A DNA stretch of 64,000 nucleotides from Candidatus Obscuribacterales bacterium (GCA_965228855.1 CBDDIJ010000002.1:672001-736000), one strand, 5' to 3'; positions 8,814-60,774 are shown, counted from the first letter of the stretch. Made by a program: numbers and translations. The notes: generated by a model not told the origin, from the letters alone.

Positions 8814-9176
8814 CTACGATAGAATATCGTGGATAAAGATGGGACAAAAAACTAGCTGCCGCTGGATTTACAGACCTTCTCTACAAACCGCGCTTGCGTC
8901 TTGGCTATCACAGAGCGACGGATTTCGCGAAAAGCGGCAATCCAGGAGCGACAAATCGCACGCGAACCATCCACCGACGTCGACCGCAAGGGCTGTATCA
9001 GTTCGCCTGTGTAGCCTTTGGGACTCTACAAGATACTTGGTTCTATAGTAGTGGGTTTGGCGCAATCCAGGAGCGACAAAGTGCACGCGAACCATCCACC
9101 GACGTCGACCGCAAGGGCTGTATCAGTTCGCCTGTAAGGCATTCCGGCTTTAGCGAGATACTGTCGTTTTTAGTAG
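8814..9176. repeat. Dispersed 54-bp-core element, locus A (core 8901-8954; right module duplicated)
   Basis: CTACGATA at 8814; core TTGGCTA..GCGACAA; direct repeat 8937-9010 / 9062-9135; arms end TAGTAG at 9051 and 9176. Confidence 0.85.
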
Positions 9177-9235
9177 ACCAAATCGGAGGACGAACGGAAA
9201 GAGGGTGGCACTTCCCGTTCGTTTTGTTGGCGGTT

Positions 9236-9550
9236 TTAGTCCTTCTTCTTTTTCTTCTTCTGATTCTTGGCGAGCAGGCGCTCGATCGGCTCACCGCGCT
9301 CGGCGACGTTGCGCACGAGTTCCGCAGCGTCCTCGGGAGTGACACCGCCGTACTGAACGCCGCCGGGAGTGACGATCACGCTCGGTCCGGTGCTGCACAG
9401 CCCCATGCACTTCTCGCCTTCGAGCTTGATCTCGCCTTTGAGGTCCTGCGCTTTCAGCTCGCGCTTAATCGCCTTGTAGACCTCCTCGCCGCCACGCTTG
9501 CAACAGTGCTTGCCGCGTTCGCAGACATGAATCTTGGGTTTCTTTGCCAT
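9236..9550 (-). CDS. Thioredoxin-like [2Fe-2S] ferredoxin
   Basis: IHVCERGKHCC...KCMGLCSTGPSVIVTPGGVQYGGVT; start MAKKPK. Confidence 0.88.
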   Translation of the reverse strand: MAKKPKIHVCERGKHCCKRGGEEVYKAIKRELKAQDLKGEIKLEGEKCMGLCSTGPSVIVTPGGVQYGGVTPEDAAELVRNVAERGEPIERLLAKNQKKKKKKD

Positions 9551-9725
9551 CGGGCTATCCCCTTCAGGTTCGTTGCTCAATTTAATCCTCTTCCAAAAAA
9601 ACATATAGCTCAGGTCGAAAGACCTGACCGGAAAGGAGTGTGACGCAATGATTTGCGCCAACGGTGGGATGAAACCGTCGAGAAGAGAGCGCGAGCAATG
9701 CCCGCGCTCCCTTCAATGACGACTG

Positions 9726-11201
9726 TTACTTCGCGGCTTCCGAACTCTTGCCGGCCACGTCGCCTGGGGCGACCGGAGTGTTCTCGGCGGCAGGTGCGGC
9801 GGAAGTGTTTTCAACCGGTGCGGAACCGGAAACAGCATCGCTGGCCGAAGGCGCTGCGCCAGGAGCAACGACGCCTTCCGAAGCCTTCGGATCGGCGGCG
9901 GGAACCGCCTTGATCTCGAGCTCCGTGAGCATCGTGTCCACACCGCCCGTGGTGGCGGGGGTGCCACCGGCAGCCTTCGCCTCCTTCTTGGCGCGCGCCT
10001 TGGAGCACGCACCACCGCAGCCGCCGGCTTTCTGCGCCAGCGCGCAGCCACCGGTGACGGGCAGCGAGCCGGGAGCCGGACCGCCGGGGTTGCCGTGCAC
10101 CGACACTTCCTTCATCGCCCAGCGGCGCGCGAACATCGGGTTGGCACCACGCACAGGCGACGGGATCACCGAGACTTCCTTGCCGCGAGCGGTCGGGAAG
10201 ACGTGGCGATCGATGTCGTGCCCGTCACGCAGGAAGGCGTCGTACATGCGGCGACAGGCGACCAGGTAGCGGTCGACACCGATCATGGCCTGGCCGGGCA
10301 GCACCTCGGGAGTGCACGACTCCAGCACCACGCGGTCCTCCTCGAGGATGGTGTTGCCGAGGTTGCGCAGGCGGTCGTCGGCGGTTTCCGTCTTCTCGAA
10401 GTTGCGCACGCCCATCATGCCGAAAACGACGGTGTCGTCGTCGATCGGCGTGAAGTGGAAGAGCGTGACGTCCTTGTAGGGACCGACCGAGAACGAGTTG
10501 ACCACGACGGTCGGCATGTGGAACCGCAGATACGAGTCGATGTCCGGGTTCGGGCCGAGCTCGGGCGTCGGCGGGAAGACCGGGATGCTCTCGTTGAACT
10601 TGACCTTGACGCGGCACCAGACCTCGTACTTACTGCGCTCCACCTTGTAGTCGTCACGGAACGGGTGATCGGCGTTGCCGAACGAGTTGCCGTGCAAGTA
10701 CGAGAAGTGCGTGAAGTCGATCAGGTTCTCGAGCAGCGGTCGCAGCGAGCATTCCCACTCGTACTTGGTGTAGAGCGGGTGGAAGTTCGGGTCGTTGAAC
10801 TCCGGGATGTCGACGATCGGCGGACGCTTGTCCTCCGGTTCGTCACCCAGGTAGACCCAGAGCAGACCGTACTTCTCCACGACCGGATACGAGTCCACCA
10901 GCAGCGCCGGTGAGATCTTGCTCTGGTCGGTGAACGCCGGCACGACCGCGCAATCACCGTCGCCACCGTAGGCGAAGTGGTGATACGGGCAGACGAGATT
11001 GCCGTCGACGACCTTGCCCAGCGACAGCTTGGCGCCCATGTGTGCGCACATATCGTGAAGGGCGCGAACATTGCCATCCTTGTCCAGGAACAGCGCGATG
11101 TCCATGCCCAGAAGCTTCTTCCGGACGGGTTGCGTCTCCACGGTGACTTCCGAGGGCTCGCCGACCACGTACCAGAAACCTTTCAGCCATTCTCTCTTCA
11201 T
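9726..11201 (-). CDS. Rieske non-heme iron oxygenase alpha subunit with Cys/Ala-rich C-terminal extension
   Basis: CAH...CPYH and ENLIDFTHFSYLH; close paralog of 52..1185; start MKREWLKG after GGAG. Confidence 0.9.
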   Translation of the reverse strand: MKREWLKGFWYVVGEPSEVTVETQPVRKKLLGMDIALFLDKDGNVRALHDMCAHMGAKLSLGKVVDGNLVCPYHHFAYGGDGDCAVVPAFTDQSKISPALLVDSYPVVEKYGLLWVYLGDEPEDKRPPIVDIPEFNDPNFHPLYTKYEWECSLRPLLENLIDFTHFSYLHGNSFGNADHPFRDDYKVERSKYEVWCRVKVKFNESIPVFPPTPELGPNPDIDSYLRFHMPTVVVNSFSVGPYKDVTLFHFTPIDDDTVVFGMMGVRNFEKTETADDRLRNLGNTILEEDRVVLESCTPEVLPGQAMIGVDRYLVACRRMYDAFLRDGHDIDRHVFPTARGKEVSVIPSPVRGANPMFARRWAMKEVSVHGNPGGPAPGSLPVTGGCALAQKAGGCGGACSKARAKKEAKAAGGTPATTGGVDTMLTELEIKAVPAADPKASEGVVAPGAAPSASDAVSGSAPVENTSAAPAAENTPVAPGDVAGKSSEAAK

Positions 11202-11220
11202 TTGAATGTCTCCTTGTCCA

Positions 11221-12429
11221 TCAGGACTTGATACTGTCTGCCGCGCCATCATTGGCGGTGGCAGTCGCAGGCTCGGAAGCGTCCGCTTCCTGCTGCTGAG
11301 AAGATGTAGGAATGTTGGCTGCTAGAGCCGTTTCGACAGCGGGCGCTTCGCCCGTTGTCACAATAAGCGAGTCCAGCGCATCCGCTTGTGACGCGCAAGA
11401 CGTTTCGTTCTCACCGGCATCCGTGCCGGTGGTGGCGGCAGCTGGGGAAGACCCGGCAGCCGTGGGGGAAAGCACCGGAGCTTGACGAGCCGCAACAGCA
11501 GCTTCGTAGCTGAACTCCGGGTCCAGGTCCGCATCGAGTGCGATACCATGGAAGTCGTTGAACCAGTCACGACAGACCTTACCGTGCGCATCGCGCAGAC
11601 GGTTGAGGTAAGCCGGCCAGTCGCGCTTGCGCGAGCATAGTGCCTCGAGCACGGCTTGGAATGGCGCTTGCTGTTCCTTCCGGAACTCTTCCAGCGCCCC
11701 CTCCCTCCCCTGCTCAAACCGCTTCAAATGCCGCGAGAGTGGAACCGACCCGAGATAGCGCCCTTCGGCAACCGACTCCCTGATGAATTCCTCGTCCTCC
11801 TCGCCCTCGACCTTGTTGCCGACGACGTAGGTTTTTTCCGCAAGCTCCGGCGAGACGCCGATAAAATCACGGTAAACGCTGACCGACTTGGCCGTCGGCT
11901 CGACGACAAACACATTCATGTCGTAAGCGAACCACAGCGAAGTCGCCAGATTGTCGGTACCGGCGGTGGTATCAGCGACCACGAAGTCGGTTTCGCCGTC
12001 CAGCATGTGATGCAGGATAGCGGCGAGACCGAACAGCTTGGTGTGGTAGCACGAACCACCCATGTCGGCTTGTTTGTACTGACCGACGGTCAGCAGCGCG
12101 AGCGAACCGTCGACCAGCGCATAGCGCCGGAGCAACTCGTCCGCGGGACTGACGGCGATGAAGTTCGAATCGAGCGAGGGCGGAGTCGTAGCCAACATCG
12201 GGCGTTCCCCGAGGTCGGTGCGCTCGCCGCGCAGATATTCGATCACCTCATCGAAGTGACCTTCGAGATGCACCGGGTCTCCCGACAAGCCCAACGCGGT
12301 TTTGAAATGCGCGTTGACGTCGGCATCGAGTGCAAGAACAAACGGGAATCGATCGGCGAGGTACCGGGCAAAGCCAGCGGCAGTCGTCGTTTTACCCGAA
12401 CCACCTTTGCCAAGGAATGCGATTCTCAT
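11221..12429 (-). CDS. CooC-like MinD/ParA-family P-loop ATPase
   Basis: MRIAFLGKGGSGKTT, LDAD, GGSCYH, VVADTTAG, VVEPT, VVGNK. Confidence 0.82.
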   Translation of the reverse strand: MRIAFLGKGGSGKTTTAAGFARYLADRFPFVLALDADVNAHFKTALGLSGDPVHLEGHFDEVIEYLRGERTDLGERPMLATTPPSLDSNFIAVSPADELLRRYALVDGSLALLTVGQYKQADMGGSCYHTKLFGLAAILHHMLDGETDFVVADTTAGTDNLATSLWFAYDMNVFVVEPTAKSVSVYRDFIGVSPELAEKTYVVGNKVEGEEDEEFIRESVAEGRYLGSVPLSRHLKRFEQGREGALEEFRKEQQAPFQAVLEALCSRKRDWPAYLNRLRDAHGKVCRDWFNDFHGIALDADLDPEFSYEAAVAARQAPVLSPTAAGSSPAAATTGTDAGENETSCASQADALDSLIVTTGEAPAVETALAANIPTSSQQQEADASEPATATANDGAADSIKS

Positions 12430-12442
12430 TGGCAGTCCTCCA

Positions 12443-12760
12443 TTATGTTCTAGTGTTCATTCCGGAACGCGAGCCCGGAAAGGGAATGACTGTTGGAGCA
12501 TCGAGCTCCAATTCACGAGAGGATGAAACTCCTTGTCGCGACGCACTCGGAACCAGTCCAAGAGCGCGCTGCAGTTGTTTAACTTGTCGGGGTGACATGG
12601 TCACCGAGGACTGCGTGAACCAACCGATTCCCGAAGCCCAACTCTGTTGTTTCAAACAGACGCGACTGCCGGACGCATCATGGAGCAAAACCAGCTCGAT
12701 GCGTTCGGTCTGCGAGTCGTCTGACAGCTCTGCCAGTACGACCTCCTTCTGACCGTTCAA
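12443..12760 (-). CDS. Hypothetical protein, first gene of the Rieske operon
   Basis: TTG start after GGAG; KQQSWASGIGWFTQ segment; 13 bp gap to the ATPase. Confidence 0.65.
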   Translation of the reverse strand: MNGQKEVVLAELSDDSQTERIELVLLHDASGSRVCLKQQSWASGIGWFTQSSVTMSPRQVKQLQRALGLVPSASRQGVSSSRELELDAPTVIPFPGSRSGMNTRT

Positions 12761-12913
12761 AGCAATTCTCCGAATGGAAAAGAAGCGGAACGATTCTCAA
12801 AACCCGCCATCAGCTAAGCGCTAACGCGTTGTCTTCTTAATTAGTTATTTGTCTGTAAAAGAAGTTCTGTGTGGTTTAGCCAGGTTTGGGAAAAGAAACA
12901 TTAGACTCAAAGA

Positions 12914-12928
12914 CAATAATCATTCGCA
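12914..12928. promoter_or_regulatory. Fur-like box CAATAAT-C-ATTCGCA
   Basis: Imperfect 7-1-7 dyad upstream of the Rieske operon. Confidence 0.5.
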
Positions 12929-13062
12929 ATAGACTTATTCAAAGAAATGACTATGAATGTGAACCAAGGCGCCAAAATCGCTTGTCTACCCCGAAACGGC
13001 ATACATGTCTGGCTTTCGCCCATTTTTGGGGCAGCGAAACTCGTTGCGCTATCGCAAGTTTT

Positions 13063-13077
13063 TGCAAATCATTCTCA
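13063..13077. promoter_or_regulatory. Fur-like box TGCAAAT-C-ATTCTCA
   Basis: Identical 15-mer at 28082; fits the TGAGAAT-N-ATT(C/T)(T/G)CA pattern. Confidence 0.65.
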
Positions 13078-13118
13078 ACAAAACAGCTTCGCCAGGCTCG
13101 CGGGTTTGAAAAAGGTTT

Positions 13119-14528
13119 TCATTCCATCGCCCCAGCGTTGAACCGATTCACTAACGGAACAGCCATCGCGCAAACTAGCGAAACGCTGGCTGACAGACAC
13201 ATCAGCGGCGCAATGCTGTTCGCGAACACATGGGTGTAGAGAAATCCGCCCGTAAGTTGACCAAGCTGTCCGAATCCATTATAGGTGGCGATCAGGATAG
13301 AAAATGCGGTCGCCTCGATCTTGGACGGGCAAACCGTCGAAGCTGCTCCGTACAGCGCCAATATCGAAACAGTCGATGCGATTCCCCAGCAGAAGTGAAT
13401 AACCGACGCTCCAAACACGTTACCGTTCAACAACAGGTAGCCGAGACTGGCGGCAGAACTCACAAGAGCAGTTGTGACCAACTGCCTCTTAATGCTGAAA
13501 TGACGCTCAAACAACATCTTGAATAGCAGACCTCCGCAAAGCATGCCGAACGACGTGCATGCATTCAGTTGGCCGACGGTCAACTGATCGAACTTTAAAA
13601 CGTTTGATTCGTAGAAATATAGCGGCACTCCGCATATTGGGCTGAGGTTGAAAATACAGATATAGGCAAGGACAGCGAGGAAACGGGGGGACTTCAAACA
13701 AGCCAAGAACGCGCCTTTGATCGAAGCAAATTGAAAACCGACGTGATCGGCTCGCCTTTCCCGCACCACATATAACACCACATACAAAAACAGCAACGGC
13801 ATTAACCCGGCTAATACAGCGGCATAATTGATAGCATCGTGGTCACCGAACTTACTGCAGAGATAACCCCCCAGAGCCACGCACGCGATGTTCGCACTGT
13901 AATACGACAGGGATTGTGTACTCCACAGATTCCTGAGAGTTCCGTCGCGCAGACAGGCTTCCACCGTGAGAGCGTTTAGCACGACGTTTGCAAACGCCAT
14001 GCCGATACTACCCAGCACCAGAGCCGCCATCATCGCGTTAAGATGATCGAGGAGCGGAACGCAGAGCATAGCGAGCCCTGCCAGAGCACTGGCCAAGAGC
14101 AAATAGGAACGCCTGCGATAACCTGCAATTGGAAAAAAGTCCGTGAGAACTGCATATATCGGTTTGATAATCCATGGCACCATGAGCAGTGACATACATC
14201 CGGCTACGCTGGCGGCTGTAAGCCCCTCATGCTGCATCAGATAGTACTGAAGCGGCTGACTCAAAATGCCAAAATGTTGAGAAGCACCCTGAACGACATA
14301 TGCGGCGACGAAGAAGGCAATCGGCGTAAGCATCGCCTTCCGATCCTCGGATACGACCACCCCATCGGCGGCCAGGTTTGTCATGCCTGCAGCGGTCGAA
14401 TCGTCCTGCGAAGACGAGTAATCGGCGTTGTTCTCAACAGAATTCATAAACCCGGGTATCCACTCTGGTTCTTCACCAGATATGCTAACAAACCATTCAA
14501 ATTTAAACGGTTCCAGTCGCAATGACAT
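13119..14528 (-). CDS. MFS transporter, folate-biopterin (BT1)-like
   Basis: About 12 TM segments; PWIIKPIYAVLTDFFPIAGYRRRSY and CPSKIEATAFS motifs; true start may be internal. Confidence 0.85.
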   Translation of the reverse strand: MSLRLEPFKFEWFVSISGEEPEWIPGFMNSVENNADYSSSQDDSTAAGMTNLAADGVVVSEDRKAMLTPIAFFVAAYVVQGASQHFGILSQPLQYYLMQHEGLTAASVAGCMSLLMVPWIIKPIYAVLTDFFPIAGYRRRSYLLLASALAGLAMLCVPLLDHLNAMMAALVLGSIGMAFANVVLNALTVEACLRDGTLRNLWSTQSLSYYSANIACVALGGYLCSKFGDHDAINYAAVLAGLMPLLFLYVVLYVVRERRADHVGFQFASIKGAFLACLKSPRFLAVLAYICIFNLSPICGVPLYFYESNVLKFDQLTVGQLNACTSFGMLCGGLLFKMLFERHFSIKRQLVTTALVSSAASLGYLLLNGNVFGASVIHFCWGIASTVSILALYGAASTVCPSKIEATAFSILIATYNGFGQLGQLTGGFLYTHVFANSIAPLMCLSASVSLVCAMAVPLVNRFNAGAME

Positions 14529-14554
14529 GACACGCTAATAACGTCATTACAAAG

Positions 14555-14591
14555 CGAAAAGCGACCTGCTTCGATCGCGGGTCGCTTTTCG
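14555..14591 (-). terminator. Intrinsic terminator hairpin downstream of the His-rich gene
   Basis: CGAAAAGCGACC / GGTCGCTTTTCG stem. Confidence 0.6.
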
Positions 14592-14633
14592 TTTCGTACT
14601 TCAAAACTCAGGTCTACACGACCTTCACTGAGA

Positions 14634-14957
14634 CTACTTGCTCAGATTTACTTTACCGTGGTCATCGCAGTGACCATCATGGTGATGATGAAGGTGACCA
14701 TCAACGAGATAGCAGGTGTGATCGCCGTGCGGAACGGCTTCGTGTCCGCAGTCCTTACCGTGAACATGGCCTGCTTCGTGGCCTTTGCAGGAGTGGTCGC
14801 CGCAGCCGAGCTGGTGCTCGTCCACGTGATCGCCGTGCTGATGATGGAGATGACCATCGTGGAGATAGTCCGTGTGATCTCCGTGCTGAACAGCAGTATG
14901 CCCGCAGGTTGCCGAATGCTTATGCTCGTGATCGCCATGTGTCTTGCAGTTGCTCAT
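14634..14957 (-). CDS. Small His/Cys-rich putative metal-binding protein
   Basis: Two internal repeats CGHxAVxHGDHxxYLxDGHLHH; GGAG RBS. Confidence 0.85.
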   Translation of the reverse strand: MSNCKTHGDHEHKHSATCGHTAVQHGDHTDYLHDGHLHHQHGDHVDEHQLGCGDHSCKGHEAGHVHGKDCGHEAVPHGDHTCYLVDGHLHHHHDGHCDDHGKVNLSK

Positions 14958-14998
14958 TTCTTACTCCGTTTGCGAATTCTGAGATACTAATTTGATAA

Positions 14999-15013
14999 TC
15001 AAAACCGTTTTCG
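14999..15013. promoter_or_regulatory. Zur-like box TCAAAAC-C-GTTTTCG
   Basis: Dyad about 40 bp upstream of the His-rich gene; same class as the boxes at 2612 and 15200. Confidence 0.55.
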
Positions 15014-15199
15014 ATTTCAGGCTCGCCGCCTGCGTCGCGCCAAACGCGCAACAACTCCCTTTATAATGCACCAATTCGCAACGCGTCAATCGCGCGCCAC
15101 CACCCACGAGACTAAGGAAAAATGAAGATCATCCAAAGACCGGCTCGATATGCCCACTTCAGACGAACATAAAATTGCTCGTAAATTTATATTGGACAT

Positions 15200-15214
15200 C
15201 GAAAACCGTTTTCA
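15200..15214. promoter_or_regulatory. Zur-like box CGAAAAC-C-GTTTTCA
   Basis: Near-perfect 7-1-7 dyad; a further dyad AACGATAATCGTTGTCGTT lies at 15262-15280. Confidence 0.55.
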
Positions 15215-15330
15215 TTCCCTCAAAACCGGCTACCCATGCCACAAACGGTGCCGTTTTACAGAACGATAATCGTTGTCGTTTTCATCAAACTCACCGACTT
15301 CATCCGGTTGCTTTCAGGACCTGAAATAGA

Positions 15331-17512: not shown

Positions 17513-17677
17513 TTGTTAGACCCACCGAGAAGTGAACCAGGTGAAGTTCCCAGACCGAGAAAAACATCAATTTCATTTTGGGTGAAACCTTGGAAATTGT
17601 ACAGAGAACTAGTTTTTAGGTTTGTTATAATGCTCGTTTGTGATACCAAATGTAAAACTACTCGGTCGAGATTTTTC

Positions 17678-18091: not shown

Positions 18092-18122
18092 GTGAAACGA
18101 TTACTGAACTGAAACGAGCGGC

Positions 18123-18159
18123 AAAAAGAAAACGACCTCCCGCCGGAGCGGAAGGTCGT
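18123..18159. terminator. Terminator between the convergent Fur and GNAT genes
   Basis: ACGACCTCCCGC / GCGGAAGGTCGT stem preceded by an A-tract. Confidence 0.6.
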
Positions 18160-21015: not shown

Positions 21016-21047
21016 TTTTTACTTCCTAACGGACCTTTCAGTCCCCA

Positions 21048-25575: not shown

Positions 25576-25947
25576 TCAAGCGGAGGTTAATTGTTTCACA
25601 ACCTTGTTACAGCTGTCCTGTTCAAGGTGCGAATAATCTCCCCGCTCAAGTTTCCCGGTGACCCAGTCAATGGCGATGTGCAGACCGGTGAGGATGGCCT
25701 TGATCCGCTCAACCGTGTGTTCGTTGTGGCAGCGCTCCGCCTGCATTCGAGCCACCAGGAGCTTGATTATCAGGTTATTGACGGCGCGAATGCGGCAGTC
25801 GTACACGCCGAAACCGAGCGAGATAATCACGTGCCTGGCGTCCTGCGCCGAGTTGTTGATTGTTTTCAAGCGATTGATGGTCGGCTCGGGAAAGCCATCA
25901 AGCCAGCGGAAAAATCGATCGGCGACAAATGCTCTATCTGGAACCAT
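25576..25947 (-). CDS. Hypothetical protein
   Basis: Helical-looking 123-aa ORF with a Fur-like box just upstream; no recognised motif. Confidence 0.4.
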   Translation of the reverse strand: MVPDRAFVADRFFRWLDGFPEPTINRLKTINNSAQDARHVIISLGFGVYDCRIRAVNNLIIKLLVARMQAERCHNEHTVERIKAILTGLHIAIDWVTGKLERGDYSHLEQDSCNKVVKQLTSA

Positions 25948-25993
25948 AACAATGCAGCAGCTACGCCCACAGGCGGCGCCACCAATTCCTTTT

Positions 25994-26008
25994 TGCAAGT
26001 GATTCTCA
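25994..26008. promoter_or_regulatory. Fur-like box TGCAAGT-G-ATTCTCA
   Basis: Two mismatches to the 13063/28082 box and the same ACAA flank. Confidence 0.55.
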
Positions 26009-26065
26009 ACAAATCTATCCTACTAAATGAAACCGACTTGCGCAAGCCAGGTTTCTCCATCATCC

Positions 26066-26435
26066 CTACTATAAAAGACAGGACGAGCGAAGACGCAAAA
26101 CCATTACCAGCCATGGCTTTGCACAATCTACAGAATTTCCACACAGCCATTTGGCTACGAGAGAGCGACGGATTTCGCGAATTCCGTCATTGCAGGATAG
26201 ACAAGATTCTCTACTATAGAAGACAGGATAAGCAAAAGGCGCGAAACCATTTACAGCCATGGCTTTGCACAATCTACAGAATTTCCACACAGCCATTTGG
26301 CTACGAGAGAGCGACGGATTTCGCGAATTCCGTCATTGCAGGATAGCCAAACAGACGTTCGCCCGAGCAGGTGCTCCTACAATCCCTTACGGCACAAAGG
26401 TTTAGCGCCTCACTACATACGCTTATATATAGTAG
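26066..26435. repeat. Dispersed 54-bp-core element, locus B (cores 26151-26204 and 26297-26350)
   Basis: [CTACTATA left arm + core] x2, then a right arm ending TATAGTAG at 26435. Confidence 0.9.
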
Positions 26436-26451: not shown

Positions 26452-27057
26452 TTAGATTTCTTCTTCGAGGGCGTCGAGGGCGCGTTCACATTCGTCGACT
26501 GACTGTTGAAGGAGTTTCCGGGCGCGCTCGATGCTGGCGGCCACACTGCGGTCTTTGTCGCTCATGAGCGAACGAACGCCGGCGTCGACCACCCGTTTCC
26601 CTTCATCCAACAAGGTTGAGACGTTATCCAGCGACTGCAGAACTTGCGAAACCGTGTTCGAGTCAAGGTTCGCCTTACAATCCTTGCAAAAACCGAAGAT
26701 GTCGAAGCGGCTCTCTTGATAGATGTAGCCTTTTCGCTCTGCAACTGTTTGACCGAAACCGCTGAGCAGATCATCGTGAAACTCAATGGTCAAGCCGCAT
26801 TTAGTACAAATCAAATGGTCGTGGTGCTCTTCGCCACTCACGGCTTCCCAGAGCTGGCCTCGCGCGCTCATAATGCTGCGAATTTCGCCCTGCTCGGAAA
26901 GCCGCTCGAGAGCTCGATAAATGGTTGATAAACTGACCTCGCCGCCCTGACCAATTATCCGGTCACGCAGTTCTTGCGCGCTAATATGCTGCCCCTGTGG
27001 CAGAGAAGCGAAGATGTCGAGCAATAGCTCTTTGGGTCGGGTTCTGCTTTTAACCAT
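26452..27057 (-). CDS. Fur-family regulator with C-terminal helical extension
   Basis: HISAQEL, VSLSTIYRAL, HHDHLICTKC, FGFCKDC, then about 70 aa of amphipathic helices. Confidence 0.9.
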   Translation of the reverse strand: MVKSRTRPKELLLDIFASLPQGQHISAQELRDRIIGQGGEVSLSTIYRALERLSEQGEIRSIMSARGQLWEAVSGEEHHDHLICTKCGLTIEFHDDLLSGFGQTVAERKGYIYQESRFDIFGFCKDCKANLDSNTVSQVLQSLDNVSTLLDEGKRVVDAGVRSLMSDKDRSVAASIERARKLLQQSVDECERALDALEEEI

Positions 27058-27148
27058 TTGTTGAGAACAGCGAAAGCGTCGCGGCAGACAAATCACCACG
27101 TCGTTCTATATATGTTATCTCAACAAATCCCGATCTGTTGCGTTTTTA

Positions 27149-28015: not shown

Positions 28016-28081
28016 GACAGGACCTCTAAATCGGGAACTACTTTTCGATTATGGATCGATGTGCGTCGGTTTCAAATTATA

Positions 28082-28096
28082 TGCAAATCATTCTCA
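28082..28096. promoter_or_regulatory. Fur-like box TGCAAAT-C-ATTCTCA
   Basis: Identical to the box at 13063; about 66 bp upstream of the hydroxylase. Confidence 0.65.
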
Positions 28097-28202
28097 ACAA
28101 TTCTTACAGCTCAGAGCGACAGATTTTCGCAACCAGGTATGTCCAATTTCCAAGAGGTGTGGATATACACAGCCAACACCCAAACGTTACTAAAGGCAAC
28201 CG

Positions 28203-34324: not shown

Positions 34325-34749
34325 CTACTATATCCCGGCGTATTAGCAAAATCGAGCAAACCCTGATGCGGTGTTGACTAAGAGCGATAATGCCTACGTT
34401 AGTCTTCACAAAACGCGGGCTTTTGGCTACGCTGCATTGCCGAAATTTGGAGAATCCGTCTATGCACCATAGCCAAGCGGCAGGAAAATTACGAGGTATA
34501 GCCCCAAAGGTCCCATCATTGCTACGTTTCAAGGATAAGGCTTATACTGTCTTTTCTAGTAGCAAAATCAGCGACAGGAAAATTACGAGGTTTAACCCAA
34601 GACACCCATCATTGCTAAGCTTCAGGGACGAAGCTTGTACTGTCTTTTCTAGTAGCAAAATCAGCGGCAGGAAAATTACGAGGTTTAACCCCAAGACACC
34701 CATCATTGCTAAGCTTCAGGGACGAAGCTTGTACTGTCTTTCCTAGTAG
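34325..34749. repeat. Dispersed 54-bp-core element, locus C (core 34423-34476; right arm x3)
   Basis: CTACTATA at 34325; three right arms ending TAGTAG at 34562, 34655 and 34749. Confidence 0.9.
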
Positions 34750-34767
34750 CAGATCGAGAAAGAACGA

Positions 34768-34794
34768 ACCTGGCGGGAGAGTCTCCCGCCAGGT
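34768..34794 (-). terminator. Terminator hairpin after the sigma factor gene
   Basis: Perfect stem ACCTGGCGGGAG / CTCCCGCCAGGT. Confidence 0.7.
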
Positions 34795-37876: not shown

Positions 37877-38326
37877 CTACTATATTCAAGCGTATTCGCA
37901 AATCCCGGCAAACGCTGACGAAACATGGCTTTTGGACCTACTCACCCGGTCGCCTCGTTCCAAAATCAGCGCTTCGTAACTACTACTATATCCCATCGTA
38001 TTCGCAAATCCCAGCAGATCTAGGCTACATATGACTTTTGGACCTGCACACCCCGTAGCCTCGTTCCAAAATCAGCGATTTGGCTACGCTGGAATGACGG
38101 ATCTGGCGAAAAGTGGCAATCGTACGTAGCCAAATCCAGATCAGGTCAGAGTACCAGATACCCAAAACCCCTGCAGGAAGCCTGCCTTGAGCATAAGGAT
38201 CTCACGACACCTTATAATAGCAAGGATACAGCGTAGCCAAATCCAGATCGAGCCGAGCGCCAGATACCTTAAACCCCTGCGGTGAGCCTGTCTTGAGCAT
38301 AGAGGTATCACGATATTTTATAGTAA
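37877..38326. repeat. Dispersed 54-bp-core element, locus D (core 38080-38133; left arm x2, right arm x2)
   Basis: CTACTATA at 37877 and 37983; right arms end TATAATAG at 38220 and TATAGTAA at 38326. Confidence 0.9.
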
Positions 38327-38340
38327 CAAACTTGGGGAGA

Positions 38341-49683: not shown

Positions 49684-49709
49684 CCCGCTATCATACACCA
49701 AAAGACCCT

Positions 49710-50198
49710 CTACTATCTCTTGTCACACCCTTGTGGTTTCGAAACGGTCTGCCAGCAAGACTCTCCCCACCTACCCCACCGCATCGAAGACTTTTGTCTA
49801 CGAGCCATTGCCGGAATTTCAAAAATGCGTCATACCCACAGCGACAAGCATGGACTAAACCGCTTTCGACTACCTCGAAGACCTCTACTATCTCTTGTCG
49901 CGCCCTTGTGGTTTCGAAACGGTCTGCCAGCAAGACTCTCGTCACCTTGCCCCATTGCTTCGAAACTTTTGTCTACGAGCCGTTGCCGGATTTCGGCAAA
50001 TGCGTCATACCCACAGCGACAAGGCAAAAAGATCCTCTACTATCTCTTGTCGCGCCCTTATGGTTTCGAAACGGTCTGCCAGCAAGACTCTCCCCACCTA
50101 CCCCACCGCATCGAAGACTTTTGTCTACGAGCCATTGCCGGAATTCGACAAATGCGTCATACCCACAGCGACAAGCATGGACTAAACCGCTTTCGACC
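49710..50198. repeat. Dispersed 54-bp-core element, locus E (cores 49794-49847, 49969-50022, 50121-50174)
   Basis: [CTACTAT 84-bp left arm + core] x3. Confidence 0.9.
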
Positions 50199-51747: not shown

Positions 51748-51803
51748 GAGAACTCCAGTCAATTACGTTGTCTGTGCTTGCGAATTTGCAGTAATGAAAC
51801 AGA

Positions 51804-52934: not shown

Positions 52935-52985
52935 AAGACCTCCTACTCCTGTTTACAGGAAAGTTAGAGAGACCGGCAGCCCGCC

Positions 52986-54758: not shown

Positions 54759-54876
54759 AGCGTATTTCTCCTCGTCAGCAAAGCGGCACGACATGAGTCG
54801 TTGCCGTCTCATGCATGCGGTTAGTGAGAGTGAGGCGCCGATTCGGGGAGCCACCACCAGCGGTGACAACTCCAAG

Positions 54877-56241
54877 CTACGAGATGGATGCCTGCACTTT
54901 GACTTCGAGCGAAGTAATCGTCTGGCCTTCCTTGTCGAGAACCGTCAAGGTATAGCCGGACAGCGAGATTGAGTCGCCGATTTTGGGCGTGCGCCCGAAC
55001 TTCTCGACGAACGTGCCGGCGAGCGTGATGTTGTAGCCGTCGAATTCGAGCACTCTGGTCGAAACCTTGCTGAACTCGAACAGCGTCACACCACCGGCGA
55101 CTTTCCAGGTGTTCTCCCCGGTTTTGACAATGTCGCGCTGCGGCTTGTCGTACTCGTCCCAGATGTCGCCGACCAGCTGTTCCAGCAGGTCTTCGAGGCA
55201 GACTATGCCGATAGTATTGCCGAACTCGTCGGCAACCATCACCATCGAAAGCCGCTTGGCGCGCATGTCTTCCAGAAGAGTACTGGTCTTCATCGTGTCT
55301 GGCACGAAGTGGGCCTGACGAAGCAGATGAGACAGATTGAACGACTCCTGCAGCGCGGTCGGGACCGCTTTGGCACCACCTCCGGAGGCAGCGTACCGGC
55401 TGAACCAGACATCGAAGAGGTCCTTCGTGCCCAGGATACCGACGACTTTGTTATCGAGCGAATCGAAGACCGGCAACTTGCCGTGCTTCGTCTCCACGAC
55501 AACACGCATCACCTGAGCGAGCGTGAAGTCGTTTCGGAGGTATTGGACCTGTGTCTTCGGACGCATCACGTCGCGCACGGTAAGCGCACGAAGTTCGAGC
55601 GCGCTGACCAGTAGGTCCGATTCCTGCTTGCCGAGAGTCCCTGCCTTAGCGCTTTCCTCCACCATGATTTGGAATTCACGCGCGGAAGGATGACGCTGTT
55701 CTTCCTTCTCGTTCTCGAATCCCATGATGCGAATCGCAAGATTCGACAAGAAGTTCATGACCGAGAGGAAAGGGCTGGTCAGTTTGCAGAACAAGCGGAA
55801 CGGCAATCCGAGCCGCAGCAACGTCTTCTCCGGAAAACGAATCCCGATGAACTTCGGGACCTGCTCTCCGATGATGATATGCGCACCGCTCAGCAAGGCG
55901 AACGTGACCACCAAACCGACCAGATGCGGCACATGCGCGTGCTCGAAACCTGGTATCGCATTCAGTGCCATCTCCAGCGCCGCCGAGACAGCCTTCTCAC
56001 CCATCGCGCCTACGACGAGGCTGGCGAGCGTGATGCCCAGCTGGGCGCCGGCGATACTGTTTTCGATGTCCTTCTGCAGCGCAGCCAACATGGGCGCACC
56101 GTAGGCACCGGACTTGACCATTTCTTGAACGCGACTCTTGCGAAGCCGAATAACAGCGAACTCGGCAGCCACGAACAGACCGTTGGCGATGATGAACAGC
56201 GCCACAATGCCAAGCCACATGAAAATAGAGCCCGTGCTCAT
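54877..56241 (-). CDS. Hemolysin-family CNNM/CBS/CorC transporter
   Basis: NGLFVAAEFA, QLGITLASL, GEQVPK, CBS pair, DEFG, EDLLEQLVGDIWDE. Confidence 0.92.
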   Translation of the reverse strand: MSTGSIFMWLGIVALFIIANGLFVAAEFAVIRLRKSRVQEMVKSGAYGAPMLAALQKDIENSIAGAQLGITLASLVVGAMGEKAVSAALEMALNAIPGFEHAHVPHLVGLVVTFALLSGAHIIIGEQVPKFIGIRFPEKTLLRLGLPFRLFCKLTSPFLSVMNFLSNLAIRIMGFENEKEEQRHPSAREFQIMVEESAKAGTLGKQESDLLVSALELRALTVRDVMRPKTQVQYLRNDFTLAQVMRVVVETKHGKLPVFDSLDNKVVGILGTKDLFDVWFSRYAASGGGAKAVPTALQESFNLSHLLRQAHFVPDTMKTSTLLEDMRAKRLSMVMVADEFGNTIGIVCLEDLLEQLVGDIWDEYDKPQRDIVKTGENTWKVAGGVTLFEFSKVSTRVLEFDGYNITLAGTFVEKFGRTPKIGDSISLSGYTLTVLDKEGQTITSLEVKVQASIS

Positions 56242-56618
56242 GTAGTCTCCAAGGTGTTACTCGGGCGTGGCAGGCGGTTTTACATCAACCGGACATCCAC
56301 TCCCGTCAACATGAAGAACGCTCGATCGCCGTCACTGCTCGCTGGAAGCATAAGAGATTGAGGTATTCGTAAAAGTAATCAGTTCTCTGAGTAGAGATTC
56401 AGTCCAGTGTTTGGAAAAAAATAGGCCAGGTAAATCTAATAGCTCTCTAGCGGCTATATCAACAGCTACGTAGAATCTGATCATAAGTGCTTTATAAGAA
56501 AACGCCGAGACGTAACAACCTCACGCAGTTAGTACTAACTTTTTCTGTGTTAATGCTAATCTGACTACTCTTCTCGGCAAGCAGATCGGCTGAGAGGAAG
56601 TCATTTATCAGGAGACCT

Positions 56619-57578
56619 ATGTCGAGCTCAATCGCACAGCCACTGGGAAGAATCAGACTCGTCCATGCACCGGAGTACAACACCGACTTAGCCTTATTTG
56701 GTGTAGATAAACCGTTTGCGCTGGATCGCGGCGAATTGGTTTTGAAACAGCTGGCAAATGATTTCGATCAGAAGATACCGGTGTTGCGACCCGAGCCGAT
56801 TTCCGACGATCACATTCTTCTTGTCCACACGAAGGAATACCTGGATCAGCTTGCTGAAACCCAAACTTGGCTGAATATATTCGAATTTAAGAATGAAGAA
56901 TACAAGGCAGACACTGCCAAGAAACCGCTCCCGGAGCTCCTCGACGATATTCGCCTCAAGTGCGGCGGGACACGGCTGGCCTGCGAACTCGCATTGGAAA
57001 CCGGTATGGCAGCCAATCTAGGAGGCGGCTACCATCACGCTTATCCGGATCACGGCAGCGGCTTTTGCGTACTTCACGACATAGCAATTGCTATTAGAGA
57101 CCTGCAACGCAAACTTCTTGTGGAGCGCGTTCTCGTCATCGATCTTGACTTTCATCAAGGCGACGGAACCGCTGTAATTTTTCAAAATGATCCGACAGTT
57201 TTCACCCTCTCTGTCCACTCAAAAGAGGGATGGCCAGACGAAAAACAGGTATCGTCCTTAGATGTGGAAATTGCCGAGCACGAAACGCACGAGTATTTGA
57301 AACGCACGAAGGAAGCCGTTCTTCAATCGTTGAACGATTTCTCGCCAGACCTCGTTATCTTTGTAGCTGGTTCGGATCCTTACGAAAAGGACGTCCTGCC
57401 TGGAACTCGGTTCATAAAACTATCGCTGGAAACTTTACTGGAGCGCGATAAATTTGTCATTAATACAATGGCTGACCGCCAAATCCCGCTTGCCATGGTC
57501 TTCTCCGGCGGCTACGGACCTGATGTTTGGGAAGTACATTACGGCGCAGTTAAACACCTGCTAATCAGAAGCATGTAA
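56619..57578 (+). CDS. Histone deacetylase family protein
   Basis: GGGYHHA, GFC, IDLDFHQGDGT, AGSDP, SGGY. Confidence 0.92.
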   Translation: MSSSIAQPLGRIRLVHAPEYNTDLALFGVDKPFALDRGELVLKQLANDFDQKIPVLRPEPISDDHILLVHTKEYLDQLAETQTWLNIFEFKNEEYKADTAKKPLPELLDDIRLKCGGTRLACELALETGMAANLGGGYHHAYPDHGSGFCVLHDIAIAIRDLQRKLLVERVLVIDLDFHQGDGTAVIFQNDPTVFTLSVHSKEGWPDEKQVSSLDVEIAEHETHEYLKRTKEAVLQSLNDFSPDLVIFVAGSDPYEKDVLPGTRFIKLSLETLLERDKFVINTMADRQIPLAMVFSGGYGPDVWEVHYGAVKHLLIRSM

Positions 57579-58194
57579 GCGCAGCTTGCTGAGCCACTTT
57601 ACACACGCACTGCAATTAACAGCAGTTTATTTAAGAAGACAACGAGAAGAGATTTATTGTCAAGCAGACATAAAACCTCACCCATAAAACCAAAGCACTG
57701 GTTGTAAGGAGACGCTCTGTTTTGATAGCTTCTCTATATACGTTTTTGTAACACAACTCAAAGGTCATCGGACGGGATAAGTAATTAGATAGCGAAATTC
57801 GAGAAGACATCGCGAAGGTTTTCGTGAATCGACTCAAACCGCTCTCCACCCCGTTCATCCCCGAAGAGCACTTGAAGCGAGATCGCACCGCCTCATCGGT
57901 GAATACTCGTGCGTGTGTTTTATTCAGCGTTCGCAAGCAAATCAGCCGATGTCGGTTGCACTCTCGAACGTCTTGAAACGCACCGGACGGCACTCGCTCC
58001 GAATGCCGCTTTCCAAGCCTCTTCACAGCAAGATAGTCGTACGGAGTTGGAAAACTCTTTGCGATGTGACGTACAGAATCGAAACGTTCTCGTTGATCCG
58101 CGTTCGCAAAGATCAGCGCTCTCTTGCTTTCCTCTCGATAGAAAAGCTGGCACCAGGACTTAGTTTTGAGGCAGCCAGCGAGGAAAGGTTCTCT

Positions 58195-59757
58195 ATGTCT
58201 GGAGAAAATAAAAGGCGACTGACGACCCCGAAGTCGCGAGTAAAAGTTCACTTACTTGGGTCCGCCGGCGATGTCACCGGCTCGCTTATCTTGTTCGAGG
58301 TCTCCTCAGAGCAAGCTGTCATCAGGTTCTTGCTCGAAGTGGGCTTGCACCAGGATGACGACAACATCAACCGCTGCCATCGGTTGCCGAAAGGTTTGAA
58401 AGCGAAGGACATCAACTTCGCAATCATCTCGCACGCCCACATCGATCACTCGGGATACCTGCCGAAGCTCATCAAAGACGGCTTCACAGGCCCCGTGTAC
58501 ACGCATGCGGCGACGAAGGATCTTCTGCGCTTCCTGCTGCCGGACTCCGGAAATCTGCAAGAGCGTGCGGCGGAACGCGAGAATGAGCGAAACGGTTTCA
58601 AAACCGAATCAGGCAATGCACGCGCCACCAAAGGCGGTGCCGGGAATAGACGCAGCGCCAGAAGCACCACGTCCGGTGGCGCCACCAACGTCCGCGTCTA
58701 CCCCCTGTACACCGCTGCTCAAGCTCGTCGCAGCCTGGACTCCATCAAGACGCTTCAGTACGATCGCCTCTACAAACTGGCCGAAGGCGTCTCGTGCAAA
58801 TTCACCGAGGCGTCGCACATCCTCGGAGCGGCAGTCGTCACGCTGGTTCTCGGCAGCGGCAAATCGAAGAAGACGGTTTGCTTCACCGGCAACGTCGGAC
58901 GCAACGGCATGCCGTTCCTCAAGGACCTGACGCCGGTTCTGGAGGCGGACTACATCATCACCGAGTCTACCTACGGCAACAAGCTGCACGCTCAGCGTGA
59001 CCGCTTGGCTGTCCTGGCCGGCATCGTCAACGACGCCTACAAGCGCGCCAAGCGACGCGACCCGAAAGAAGGTTGCGGCGTAATCGTGCTGCCGGCGTTC
59101 GCGGTCGGTCGCGTGCAAACCGTAGTCTATGACCTGGCGCGCGCGATGGAGAAAGGCATGATTCCGAACATCCCGGTCTTCCTCGACAGCCCGATGGCAG
59201 TCGAGGCGACCAAGGTGCACCGGAAGCACACCAATCTCTACAACGACGAAGCGAAGAAGCTCGTCGCGCGCGGCATCGATCCATTCAGGACGCCGCAGTA
59301 CGTGGAGTGCAAAGGCTGGGCCCAGTCGCGCGCTCTGGACAAGCCGGCAAGCGAACCGATCATCCTGATCGGCTCGAGCGGCATGGCTGCGGGTGGTCGC
59401 ATCCTCGGTCACATCGAGAAACGTCTCGATCGCGCCGAGAACACCATCGTCTTCGTCGGCTACCAGGGAACTGGTGCGCTCGGTTACACCCTCGTCAACG
59501 AGAAGCCGAGCGAGGTCACGATTCACGACAAGGTCGTGAAGGTGCGCGCCAAGATCGAGTACATGTCCGATTATTCCGGACACGCGGACTACGCTGAAAT
59601 CATCGACTGGCTGAAGAAATTCCGCCGCAAACCCAAGAAGGTTTTCCTCGTGCACGGTGACTCCGAAGCGCTGACCGCGTTCAAAGGACACATCGGCGAG
59701 GCACTGCCCGACTGGAATGTCGTGATTCCGCAACCGCGAAACTGCTTCGAACTGTAA
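58195..59757 (+). CDS. MBL-fold beta-CASP ribonuclease
   Basis: HAHIDHSG, SHILG, ESTYG, PAFAVGR, SSGMAAGGR, YSGHAD, LVHG; start after AGGAAAGG. Confidence 0.92.
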   Translation: MSGENKRRLTTPKSRVKVHLLGSAGDVTGSLILFEVSSEQAVIRFLLEVGLHQDDDNINRCHRLPKGLKAKDINFAIISHAHIDHSGYLPKLIKDGFTGPVYTHAATKDLLRFLLPDSGNLQERAAERENERNGFKTESGNARATKGGAGNRRSARSTTSGGATNVRVYPLYTAAQARRSLDSIKTLQYDRLYKLAEGVSCKFTEASHILGAAVVTLVLGSGKSKKTVCFTGNVGRNGMPFLKDLTPVLEADYIITESTYGNKLHAQRDRLAVLAGIVNDAYKRAKRRDPKEGCGVIVLPAFAVGRVQTVVYDLARAMEKGMIPNIPVFLDSPMAVEATKVHRKHTNLYNDEAKKLVARGIDPFRTPQYVECKGWAQSRALDKPASEPIILIGSSGMAAGGRILGHIEKRLDRAENTIVFVGYQGTGALGYTLVNEKPSEVTIHDKVVKVRAKIEYMSDYSGHADYAEIIDWLKKFRRKPKKVFLVHGDSEALTAFKGHIGEALPDWNVVIPQPRNCFEL

Positions 59758-59764
59758 CAAGGAA

Positions 59765-59799
59765 GGGGAGTTGGCCTGGCAAGCCAACCCCCCTTTTTT
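59765..59799 (+). terminator. Intrinsic terminator of the beta-CASP gene
   Basis: GGGGAGTTGGC / GCCAACCCCCC stem plus T6. Confidence 0.8.
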
Positions 59800-59817
59800 C
59801 CTCTTTCCTCCAGCTTC

Positions 59818-59968
59818 CTACTATACTAGCCAGTATCGATTCCTGCCCGCAAATCCATCACCGGCGGAGGCTTCGAGGATCTCCCTCCGCTGCAAGTACT
59901 CCCAAAAACCCGTTTTGTCGCTCTACCGTAGACGGAATTTTGGAAATGCGTCATAGCCAGATAGACAC
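59818..59968. repeat. Dispersed 54-bp-core element, locus F (core 59915-59968)
   Basis: CTACTATA, 97-bp left arm, core TTGTCGC..TAGACAC; possible degenerate right arm to about 60069. Confidence 0.8.
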
Positions 59969-60213
59969 GAAGCTATCTTTGACTGGCAACACCACACGGC
60001 GGACTAAATGAACGGAAAACATCGGACGCTCCTGACGGAACGGTTCGAGCCATGATATCGCATATGGTGCCAGACCGAATTGCGAAGTCCGACGCAAAAT
60101 GCGACAAGCAGATAGCGCGCCTGGATGTTTTGATATTGAAACTGCAACTCAAAAAACTCTTGACGCGTGTTCGACGAAGCGCCTTCGTTTATATAGATAC
60201 GTCCGAAGCAACC

Positions 60214-60357
60214 TCAGGCGCGACCCTTCTTAAACACCGCGCCGCCAATCGCCATCACGATCCAACCGAGAAGTGGAACGGTCGGCATAAACCCAAAAAC
60301 GTTGCCGCACCAAATAACGGCACCGGCCACGAATATGATTGCGCCCAGAATCTGCAT
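60214..60357 (-). CDS. 47-aa two-TM membrane microprotein (not in the ORF track)
   Basis: MQILGAIIFVAGAVIWCGNVFGFMPTVPLLGWIVMAIGGAVFKKGRA; GAGG RBS. Confidence 0.7.
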   Translation of the reverse strand: MQILGAIIFVAGAVIWCGNVFGFMPTVPLLGWIVMAIGGAVFKKGRA

Positions 60358-60502
60358 AACTCAACCTCGGAAGTTTGGGGCGGTCTCCACTGGTCATAAC
60401 TTACCCGAAGGGCGACCACGCGAACCGCTAATCCGTCAACGAGTTTCGACACCAAATTAGGTAGAAACATTCAGGGTAACACTATGGGATAGAAACAATT
60501 GT

Positions 60503-60774
60503 TTGGCTATCCTGCAATGCCGAATTTTGCAGATTCCGGCAATGCACCGTAGACAACCGACACGGACAAAAGTGCACAAAAGCTCCTAACGACTGCCTGG
60601 ACGTGGTTTCGAGCGAAGATATTTATCATATCGCATAGTAGGAAGAATCGTGCCGAATTTTGCAGATTCCGGCAATGTACCGTAGACAACCGACAAAGTC
60701 AAATGTGCTCAAAGGCTCCTAACGACCACCCGGACGTGGTTTCGAGCGAAGAAACTTATCATATCATATAGTAG
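60503..60774. repeat. Dispersed 54-bp-core element, locus G (core 60503-60556, partial core 60651-60689; right arm x2)
   Basis: 85-bp right arms ending TAGTAG at 60641 and 60774. Confidence 0.9.

Follow-up and report, generated by a model that had tools for sequence, protein, structure and literature searches.

A dispersed intergenic element with a 54-bp dyad core and helically quantised arms in Candidatus Obscuribacterales

Introduction

Bacterial extragenic repeats, including repetitive extragenic palindromes (REPs), bacterial interspersed mosaic elements (BIMEs) and Correia elements, are usually taken to be hairpins or decaying mobile DNA. This study concerns a repeat family in the intergenic DNA of a 64,000-nucleotide stretch from a Candidatus Obscuribacterales bacterium (GCA_965228855.1, CBDDIJ010000002.1:672001-736000), where it occupies seven loci between positions 8,814 and 60,774. 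The whole stretch, hereafter the window, corresponds to G000:C2:672001-736000, G000 being a genome of 8.2 Mb in six contigs. Each complete element consists of a 54-bp core with dyad symmetry and two flanking arms, whose outer ends read CTACTA and TAGTAG. The conserved part is a scaffold in which eight bases are fixed, an octamer marks each end, a few A/T patches recur and helical turns set the length of the arms. Such a scaffold with drifting filler, kept copy by copy, is the trace expected of protein-wrapped DNA.

The closest described systems are the REPs and BIMEs of enterobacteria and pseudomonads. As far as excerpts of the published accounts go, these are extragenic, dyad-based sequences present in more than 100 copies, located at gene 3' ends and targeted by IS110-family elements, and the present family resembles them in each respect (PMC1525189, PMC12288879, PMC2817692). 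According to the same sources, both also form mosaics in which the orientation of the units alternates and the linkers have set lengths. The differences are that no RAYT/Y1 transposase accompanies the family described here, that its 54-bp core is not a reliable stem-loop, and that it has arms of 74-108 bp with free sequence and quantised length, an 8-bp inverted end motif and a concentration around the origin. The family thus works most like REP/BIME but fails two defining features, the stable stem-loop and RAYT.

In the Correia element of Neisseria (CREE/NEMIS), copies resemble one another over their full length and show a TA duplication, and we know of no transposase for CREE in its host. 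The portions of PMC2649163 available to us describe short intergenic elements in hundreds of copies, with terminal inverted repeats, a central protein-binding part (bound by IHF in CREE) and ends resembling promoter -10 boxes, all of which recall the elements described here. They differ in that only about 45 of 235 positions are conserved here, no duplication was seen and there is no sequence similarity between the two; the resemblance does not go beyond the outline. Miniature inverted-repeat transposable elements (MITEs) offer a comparable likeness in their terminal inverted repeats, represented here by CTACTA(TA)/(TA)TAGTAG at set distances; the present family differs in that its copies are mostly unlike along their length and that neither a target-site duplication directly outside the octamers nor a parent insertion sequence (IS) with the same ends was found.

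Two further systems are relevant to a possible function. The Escherichia coli gyrase motif, as described in part of PMC6379681, is symmetric, spans 130 bp and has arms whose GC content oscillates with a 10.75-bp period; BIME-2 elements bind gyrase and are enriched for gyrase cleavage (PMC6379681). The present elements share with gyrase sites the central symmetry, the helically oscillating arms (about 10 to 10.5 bp here) and the enrichment downstream of genes. They are likened to them by sequence only, and they differ in length (about 235 bp) and in their eight invariant bases, the gyrase motif being degenerate. In the second system, the 13-bp palindromic site matS, present in about two dozen copies in the Ter macrodomain of E. 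coli, is bound by a known protein, MatP. Here, likewise, palindromic sites are confined to one replication-defined domain, 83% of cores lying in about 1.1 Mb around dnaA; the contrast with matS lies in number, size and place, the origin region holding some 150 composite elements of 235 bp, and 31 of 179 cores fall beyond the domain. Three traits, namely a scaffold conserved around neutral filler, arms measured in helical turns and restriction to the origin region, had no counterpart in the compared literature, to which no search aimed at these features was directed. If a binding protein exists, the family would provide a handle on the organisation of the origin-proximal domain in a sister group of the cyanobacteria that is uncultured and little studied.

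Census and anatomy of the core

The initial annotation had described ten cores, each of exactly 54 bp, and all ten were recovered at that length, starting at 8901, 26151, 26297, 34423, 38080, 49794, 49969, 50121, 59915 and 60503. With up to one mismatch allowed, the pattern TTGKCKM-N40-KMGMCAA matches ten times in the window against 0.66 expected, a number reached by none of 100 shuffled sequences; nine of the ten cores fit it exactly, and core 59915 carries a single mismatch. Genome-wide, 84 of the 87 exact matches were judged real. An nhmmer profile made from these 84 and run on the whole genome, as had been proposed, revealed further copies, giving 202 core loci (181 full and 21 partial). 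Core length is exactly 54 bp in 179 of the 181 full cores; counted per strand, the off-length hits comprise two of 51 bp and two of 55 bp. By crude open reading frame (ORF) calls the cores are extragenic, with more than 100 copies per genome. Extrapolation from seven loci in 64 kb fails because the cores are unevenly spread (148/179 in 13.8% of the genome); the total is about 200, compared with roughly 900 at even density.

Eight bases, G3, C5, G17, C19, G36, C38, G50 and C52, are the same in all 179 cores and form four G-N-C triplets (positions 3-5, 17-19, 36-38 and 50-52) at spacings of 14, 19 and 14 bp. The description of the core as invariant therefore holds for its length and for these eight bases and fails for the sequence as a whole, in which mean column identity is 73% (50 cores). 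In our own reading of the base table, each half of the core appears to be an imperfect 17-bp inverted repeat, GKC-WW-YS-N3-SR-WW-GMC, and the centres of the two repeats are 33 bp apart, or about three helical turns.

Conservation in place between related genomes

The related genome G007 is collinear with C2:566-992 kb of G000 at about 95% identity. Forty of the 44 G000 cores in the compared stretch could be paired with a G007 core, and the analysis used the 38 pairs that share 44 or more of the 54 bases. No change was found in 380 comparisons at the ten positions that are invariant or nearly so, against about 38 expected at the fourfold-site rate. Whole-core divergence is 4.3% and arm divergence about 8.7% (448/5166, summed bins), the corresponding values being 9.9% at fourfold sites (2024/20380; 90 of 201 genes, gap-free alignments) and 5.7%, with 4.41 gap openings per kb, in element-free intergenic DNA. 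Arm length was kept in 39 of 48 arms, with changes of 1-3 bp in eight and of 22 bp in one. From these divergence and length figures it follows that arm sequence is near-neutral while arm length and the core scaffold are held, and the comparison shows purifying selection acting in place on the invariant bases and on arm length. At C2:953.8-954.3 kb, an element is kept in a further relative, G006, though identity in the neighbouring genes is only 75-86%; the G006 copy retains each of the eight invariant bases, and its arms are mostly unalignable.

Arm length, end motifs and helical phasing

Within 160 bp of the core, CTACTA lies upstream of 132 of 179 cores and TAGTAG downstream of 95, compared with 11 and 25, respectively, in the wrong orientation, which bears out the CTACTA(T)/(A)TAGTAG ends noted initially. 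Both ends are present at 59 of the 179 cores and neither at 11. The arms had been described as fixed in length, and this requires correction, since their lengths are quantised in several classes rather than single-valued. The distances from CTACTA to the core (n=132) fall at 73-75 (7 cases), 83-89 (63), 93-99 (55) and 106-110 bp (5), with two others; those from the core to TAGTAG (n=95) fall at 74-75 (4), 83-87 (42), 95-99 (42) and 107-109 bp (6), with one other. The octamers CTACTATA and TATAGTAG thus stand about 74, 85, 97 and 108 bp from the core, in steps of about 11 bp, or one helical turn. The same distance classes recur (4, 24, 32 and 4) for 55 cores from metagenome contigs of populations further removed from G000 (65-95% identity). 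The 57 complete elements are 216-268 bp long, typically about 235 bp.

Counted from CTACTA, the half-unit consensus comprises A at -7, T at -3, (A/C)GTA at +14 to +17, CC at +29/30, AAA at +32 to +34, GGG at +49 to +51 and TTT at +53 to +55, and the extra turn of the longer arms is placed between the TTT motif and the core. Only about 45 of the 235 element positions are conserved, and most arms are mutually dissimilar, with 20 dispersed pairs at E<=1e-3 among 224 arms. When arms are anchored on the core, their A/T content shows a spectral peak at 10 to 10.5 bp with an amplitude of 0.043, against 0.005 for the rotation null (0/1000 permutations). This phasing is also present in 191 non-redundant arms and within each length class.

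Such geometry also brings to mind a substrate of site-specific recombination, in which crossover would take place at the inverted ends, assisted by the core as an accessory or enhancer sequence, as in an invertasome or a res site. The central dyad, with 47 bp between its outer sites, has inverted terminal motifs on either side, the 85-97 bp between end and core resemble the Fis-enhancer geometry of the Hin/Gin systems, and arm length is helically phased. We give this explanation little chance of being right. No inversion was found between G000 and G007, all 48 compared arms having the same orientation, and inversion of a mirror-symmetric element would alter little. No recombinase gene was found associated with the family, the serine and tyrosine recombinase families not having been searched, and about 130 loci is, to our knowledge, far above any known invertase regulon.

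The core as a probable double-stranded DNA site

In 50 cores from the window and relatives, mirror positions pair no more often than composition predicts (73.0% of cells versus 72.8% in shuffles, with 206 of 500 shuffles as high). Nor do mirror positions covary in these cores (score 0.149 versus 0.144, 146/500 as high), which answers the covariation check recommended at the outset; strong mutual information is confined to adjacent core positions. Pair 18/37, the second pair of the inner stem, is Watson-Crick at a frequency of 0.45 against 0.53 expected and is mismatched in 32 of 48 distinct sequences, and pair 4/51 is mismatched in 26 of 48. The two ends of the core vary independently, as had been observed, pair 4/51 being Watson-Crick in 59% of cores against 55% expected, and the N8 spacers are generally unpaired, their pairing being only slightly above expectation (36-61% versus 26-51%).

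A hairpin acting as RNA or as single-stranded DNA, such as a RAYT-recognised REP, an attC-like site, a terminator or an mRNA stabiliser, would account for the dyad consensus, 73% of whose mirror cells can pair, and for the extragenic position at gene 3' ends. It would also fit the insertion of IS110-family elements, of which REPs are targets in the excerpted sources (PMC1525189, PMC12288879). Folded as single-stranded DNA, three of seven window cores reach z<=-2 (-2.1, -2.6 and -2.9). The other four, however, fold no better than shuffles (z -0.57 to +0.68), and the pairing at composition expectation, the missing covariation, the mismatches at the second pair of the inner stem and the lack of a RAYT gene all speak against a hairpin. 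The Rfam search proposed earlier, run over the whole window, returned no match at the gathering score and none even at E<=1, and the arms showed no excess RNA structure (mean z -0.13 and -0.14 per strand; 70 of 224 arms sampled). We therefore regard a functional hairpin as very improbable. The initial preference for a double-stranded, multi-site substrate over an RNA hairpin is upheld by the lack of covariation, the poor folds, the lack of Rfam matches, the helical quantisation and the phased A/T content. The conclusion that the core is not an RNA or a reliable stem-loop is supported, and every test run agrees with double-stranded DNA.

Copying, duplication and IS110 insertions

The family shows signs of duplication. 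Arrays in G000 and G007 contain different numbers of copies (1 versus 2, 2 versus 3 and 3 versus 5 being examples), and contigs of other strains contain joints that alter copy number within the array at 49.7-50.2 kb of the window. Many partial duplications begin exactly at the octamer, and in seven arrays the next CTACTATA starts 6-7 bp past a core. Eight dispersed arm pairs share at least 50 nt at 80% identity or more. The elements at C2:1120498 and C5:1318272 are inverted relative to each other, with both arms 87-88% identical; one core is the exact reverse complement of the other, and similarity begins at CTACTA.

These observations are what a purely selfish, non-autonomous MITE- or REP-like element without host function would produce, its ends and G-N-C triplets being sites of a transposase or recombinase and its helical quantisation serving synapsis of the two ends across a short loop. 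The 8-bp terminal inverted motifs, the similarity of dispersed whole elements from CTACTA inwards, the tandem half-unit duplication with constant junctions, the variable copy number, the depletion in divergent promoter regions expected of tolerated selfish repeats and the restriction to one genus all favour it. Against it, target-site duplications are lacking directly outside the octamers (2/57 versus 3.1 expected at k=2; 0 at k=3), and no RAYT/Y1 transposase (PF01797) was matched in G000, which is 95% complete, the control being positive in 6 of 14 genomes. No longer, core-less element with the same ends was found either, as all ten end pairs 0.4-5 kb apart contain cores. Self-comparison by megablast for repeats of at least 600 bp recovered only IS110-type elements and gene duplicates, and blastn of the whole element against plasmid and phage collections gave no match. 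Most arms, moreover, have no detectable similarity to one another.

Positional stability bears on the same question. For 40 of the 42 G000 clusters in the compared stretch, the mapped G007 position also holds a core cluster, and the other two have near-identical G007 cores; up to six clusters, mostly a variant 73-bp array, are confined to G007, and one G006 locus is absent from G000. Because selfish elements are not selected copy by copy, this conservation in place, together with the absence of changes at 380 sites where about 38 were expected, counts against a purely selfish nature, to which we assign a real but minority chance.

The variant arrays have an organisation of their own. Locus L008 (G007:C3:39550-39987) consists of six tandem 73-bp units whose variant core has GTCAAT...ATTGAC ends in place of TTGKC...GMCAA, and G000 lacks the array at the corresponding orthologous position (C2:632.5-632.9 kb). 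G007 has three more sites with arrays of a similar kind, also of 73 bp, at C3:48.5, 59.8 and 65.5 kb.

It had been stated that the window contains no cognate enzyme, which is correct; elsewhere in the genome, yet, IS110-family elements target the core. Seven insertion sequences of about 1.3 kb, belonging to two related types, lie inside cores and encode proteins of 320-321 residues with DEDD_Tnp_IS110 and Transposase_20 domains. All are outside the window, at G000:C2:197176-198507, 774642-775956, 858503-859817, 987606-988936 and 1120732-1122026 and at C5:860914-862245 and 1461394-1462713. Both types insert between A and C of an invariant G-A-C (G-A|C), three copies of one type at GTAGA|CAA, the outer site, and four of the other at CTATGA|CG, the inner site, and a non-coding stretch of about 280 bp follows the transposase gene on its downstream side. 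A filled core in G007 stands beside an intact tandem copy, from which it can be seen that insertion occurred without duplication. With its many copies, the family offers two RNA-guided IS110-type recombinases a natural set of targets.

Chromosomal distribution

A single stretch, C2:77,394-1,120,498, makes up 13.8% of the genome and holds 148 of the 179 full 54-bp cores (83%). It surrounds the likely origin of replication, because dnaA (C2:793,284-793,766) and the sign switch of GC skew at 750-800 kb lie inside it. An assembly join is disfavoured as the cause of the clustering, because on the 1.25-Mb G007 contig C3 the listed pattern matches likewise extend only to about 527 kb, apart from one near 800 kb. 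The element-rich stretch has 54-57% GC, compared with 50-51% elsewhere. The 32 cores beyond it (all but one of 54 bp) were considered as translocated GC-rich pieces, an idea rejected on finding surroundings of ordinary GC (0.509 versus 0.506 in controls). On a coarser scale, C2:1-1,130,000, which contains the window, is GC-richer, and GC drops sharply near 1.1-1.2 Mb.

A possible reading of this distribution is that the elements are sites of a nucleoid protein defining an origin domain of about 1.1 Mb, a counterpart of matS/MatP. There would then be about 150 composite sites, each with two operators three turns apart and arms adjustable by one to two turns. Judged from sequence features and position, such a domain-defining role is a minor possibility and an unlikely one.

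Phyletic range and gene context

The exact pattern was counted 84 times in G000, 66 times in G007 and twice in G006, and not at all in the other 38 relatives searched; a looser pattern found nothing in 40 further genomes of the taxonomic family. When one genome per species was searched across 185,579 species, all 37 loci fell in two records named 'Candidatus Obscuribacterales bacterium', and the JGI metagenomes contributed 49 loci. Judged by title and the opening of the abstract, the listed papers on Obscuribacter deal with no repeat family. In G002, one of five genomes of the same genus without cores (G001-G005), the octamer and the start of the arm follow terminators at a few loci, namely L027 (G002:C77, orthologous to 59.7-59.9 kb of the window, the place of locus 6), G002:C77:5040 and G002:C77:181072. 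The genes whose terminators CTACTATA follows there are an RNase J-like gene and two others.

Elements lie mostly at gene 3' ends. The 127 core clusters are distributed over intergenic types as 40 (++), 37 (--), 36 (+-) and 14 (-+), compared with 194, 153, 143 and 162 in the background, and the depletion of the -+ type (14 versus 162) indicates that clusters avoid divergent, promoter-only regions. Under strict criteria, a terminator-like site is aimed at the element in 23 of 224 outer flanks and away from it in eight, the figure for random intergenic windows being 44 of 1000. A terminator beside an element end thus tends to occur, as a trend and not as a rule.

This setting raises the question of whether the elements are transcription units. 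Promoter -10 boxes follow the rule TAnnnT, and in such an arrangement CTACTATA would be an inward -10 box and the half unit would yield a short RNA or leader that ends, or is regulated, at the core; in a variant, TATAGT would read outward and be activated from the core, some 85 or 97 bp upstream. The rule is obeyed by TACTAT as well as by TATAGT, (A/C)GTA is conserved at +14 to +17, the octamer often follows a terminator (in the window at 59770-59797 and 60791-60820), and at two G002 loci start codons on its strand follow after about 135 and 200 nt. An activator site in helical phase with its promoter is, moreover, a classical arrangement. On the other side, there is no -35-like conservation in either orientation, a sigma-70 scan of 48-62 kb gave 8 sites versus 6.0 expected with none at an element end, and lone half units in -- regions have, as we read the data, no consistent orientation to neighbouring genes. 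The arms give no RNA structure signal, and the core hairpin is not followed by a T run, having T before it and A after it. A search for a T7-type RNA polymerase gene (PF00940) found none and, being without a positive control, is uninformative. Taken together, we consider a transcriptional role doubtful.

Proposed function

The interpretation to which we lean, tentatively and at somewhat short of even chances, is that the family is REP/BIME-like, descends from mobile DNA and is maintained today as a double-stranded site that binds protein and wraps DNA. The 54-bp core would likely be bound by a protein as double-stranded DNA, with two protein dimers or one tetramer occupying its two operators, and the phased arms would bend or wrap around the complex in the manner of strong gyrase sites, of BIME-2 or of Lrp-type wraps. 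In the origin-proximal domain, the element may serve chromosome topology or organisation. Its origin may have been a mobile MITE- or REP-like sequence, with occasional copying of whole units to new loci and tandem duplication of half units. The binder could be an Lrp-like protein or a nucleoid protein of another kind. Gyrase is another candidate, by analogy with the sites described in part of PMC6379681. The candidates listed in the initial annotation, a non-autonomous mobile element, a resolvase-type site and a nucleoid-organising site, already included this reading.

Several points weigh against a maintained wrapping site. The case for protein binding and wrapping is a sequence-based one. 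In the spectrum, the maximum at 10 to 10.5 bp exceeds the next peak (9 bp, about 0.03) by a factor of only about 1.4, and the rotation null addresses position-specific composition and not periodicity as such, so that it is the spectrum that carries the periodic reading. Decayed copies may have escaped the census, in which case invariance among paralogues would be overstated, a bias to which the comparison of orthologues is less exposed. A selfish mobile component is real, because whole elements have been copied between distant loci. With respect to gyrase in particular, about 235 bp is nearly twice the 130-bp motif, and strict invariance is unlike its degenerate indirect readout. The element-rich stretch also differs in GC, and the repeat load might reflect history and not function; the orientation statistics, in turn, use crude greedy ORFs of at least 100 aa. 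Finally, CTACTATA could be a promoter -10 box (TAnnnT); in G002 the octamer follows terminators and precedes genes without a core.

The seven loci of the window

Local tandem duplications of arm or arm-plus-core units are found at six of the seven window loci; these duplications, two partial cores (9060-9079 and 60651-60689) and the quantisation of arm length go beyond the initial annotation. Locus 1 (8814-9176) begins with a left-end variant, CTACGATA (8814-8821), followed by the core at 8901-8954 and the right end TATAGTAG at 9044-9051. After 9051 comes a tandem copy consisting of the partial core 9060-9079 and a right arm, with a period of 125 (8937-9162). Locus 2 (26066-26435) comprises two tandem units of CTACTATA, arm and core with a 146-bp period, the octamers lying at 26066-26073 and 26211-26218 and the cores at 26151-26204 and 26297-26350; its single right arm ends in TATAGTAG at 26428-26435. 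At locus 3 (34325-34782), CTACTATA (34325-34332) and the core (34423-34476) are followed by three tandem right-arm repeats of 93-94 bp, each with a CTAGTAG end.

Locus 4 (37877-38329) has two tandem 106-bp left arms, each starting with CTACTATA (37877 and 37983), a core at 38080-38133 and a 106-bp tandem on the right side in which a TAGTAG end was not recognised. Locus 5 (49700-50197) is an array of three tandem units, each composed of CTACTATC (at 49710, 49885 and 50037), an 84-bp arm and a core (49794-49847, 49969-50022 and 50121-50174), with periods of 175 and 152 bp. Locus 6 (59818-59968) is a half element of the 97-bp class, with CTACTATA at 59818-59825 and the core with one mismatch at 59915-59968; no right end is recognisable at the loci of cores 38080 and 59915. 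Locus 6 begins about 20 nt past the terminator of an upstream beta-CASP/RMMBL (RNase J-like) gene, a terminator-like hairpin with a T run on the plus strand at 59770-59797, just outside the element end. Locus 7 (60503-60774) contains the core 60503-60556 and a right arm ending in ATAGTAG at 60635-60641, and then a tandem copy with a 133-bp period, in which the partial core 60651-60689 is followed by TATAGTAG at 60767-60774. Just outside its right end, at 60791-60820 on the minus strand, lies the terminator-like hairpin of a convergent gene.

A contig from run X8 joins position 59794 to 60219 and thereby leaves out the half element of locus 6 together with some 250 bp beyond it. The joint was considered as an empty site and set aside as too weak, its shorter side comprising 30 nt at 85% likeness. 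The run is labelled RNA-Seq and was rated as probably DNA, and its contigs cannot show transcript ends; for a 10-kb query, no RNA dataset was listed as containing it.

Other repeats in the window

Three further kinds of repeat were noted. A 26-nt motif resembling TTTTTGCAAATCATTCTCAACAA (81-88% identical) occurs three times, at 13056-13081, 25987-26012 and 28075-28100; one copy adjoins the start of the gene at 25576-25998, near a Fur-family gene (26452-27099), and could be an operator. The segments 284-1035 and 10297-11048, 10,013 bp apart, are 72-79% identical, and as one of them lies within a Rieske/VanA_C oxygenase gene (9726-11252), they are probably paralogous genes. Lastly, positions 1859-1984 hold a 27-nt tandem repeat of about 3.9 copies, rich in CATGCTCATG, within the ORF at 1783-2238.

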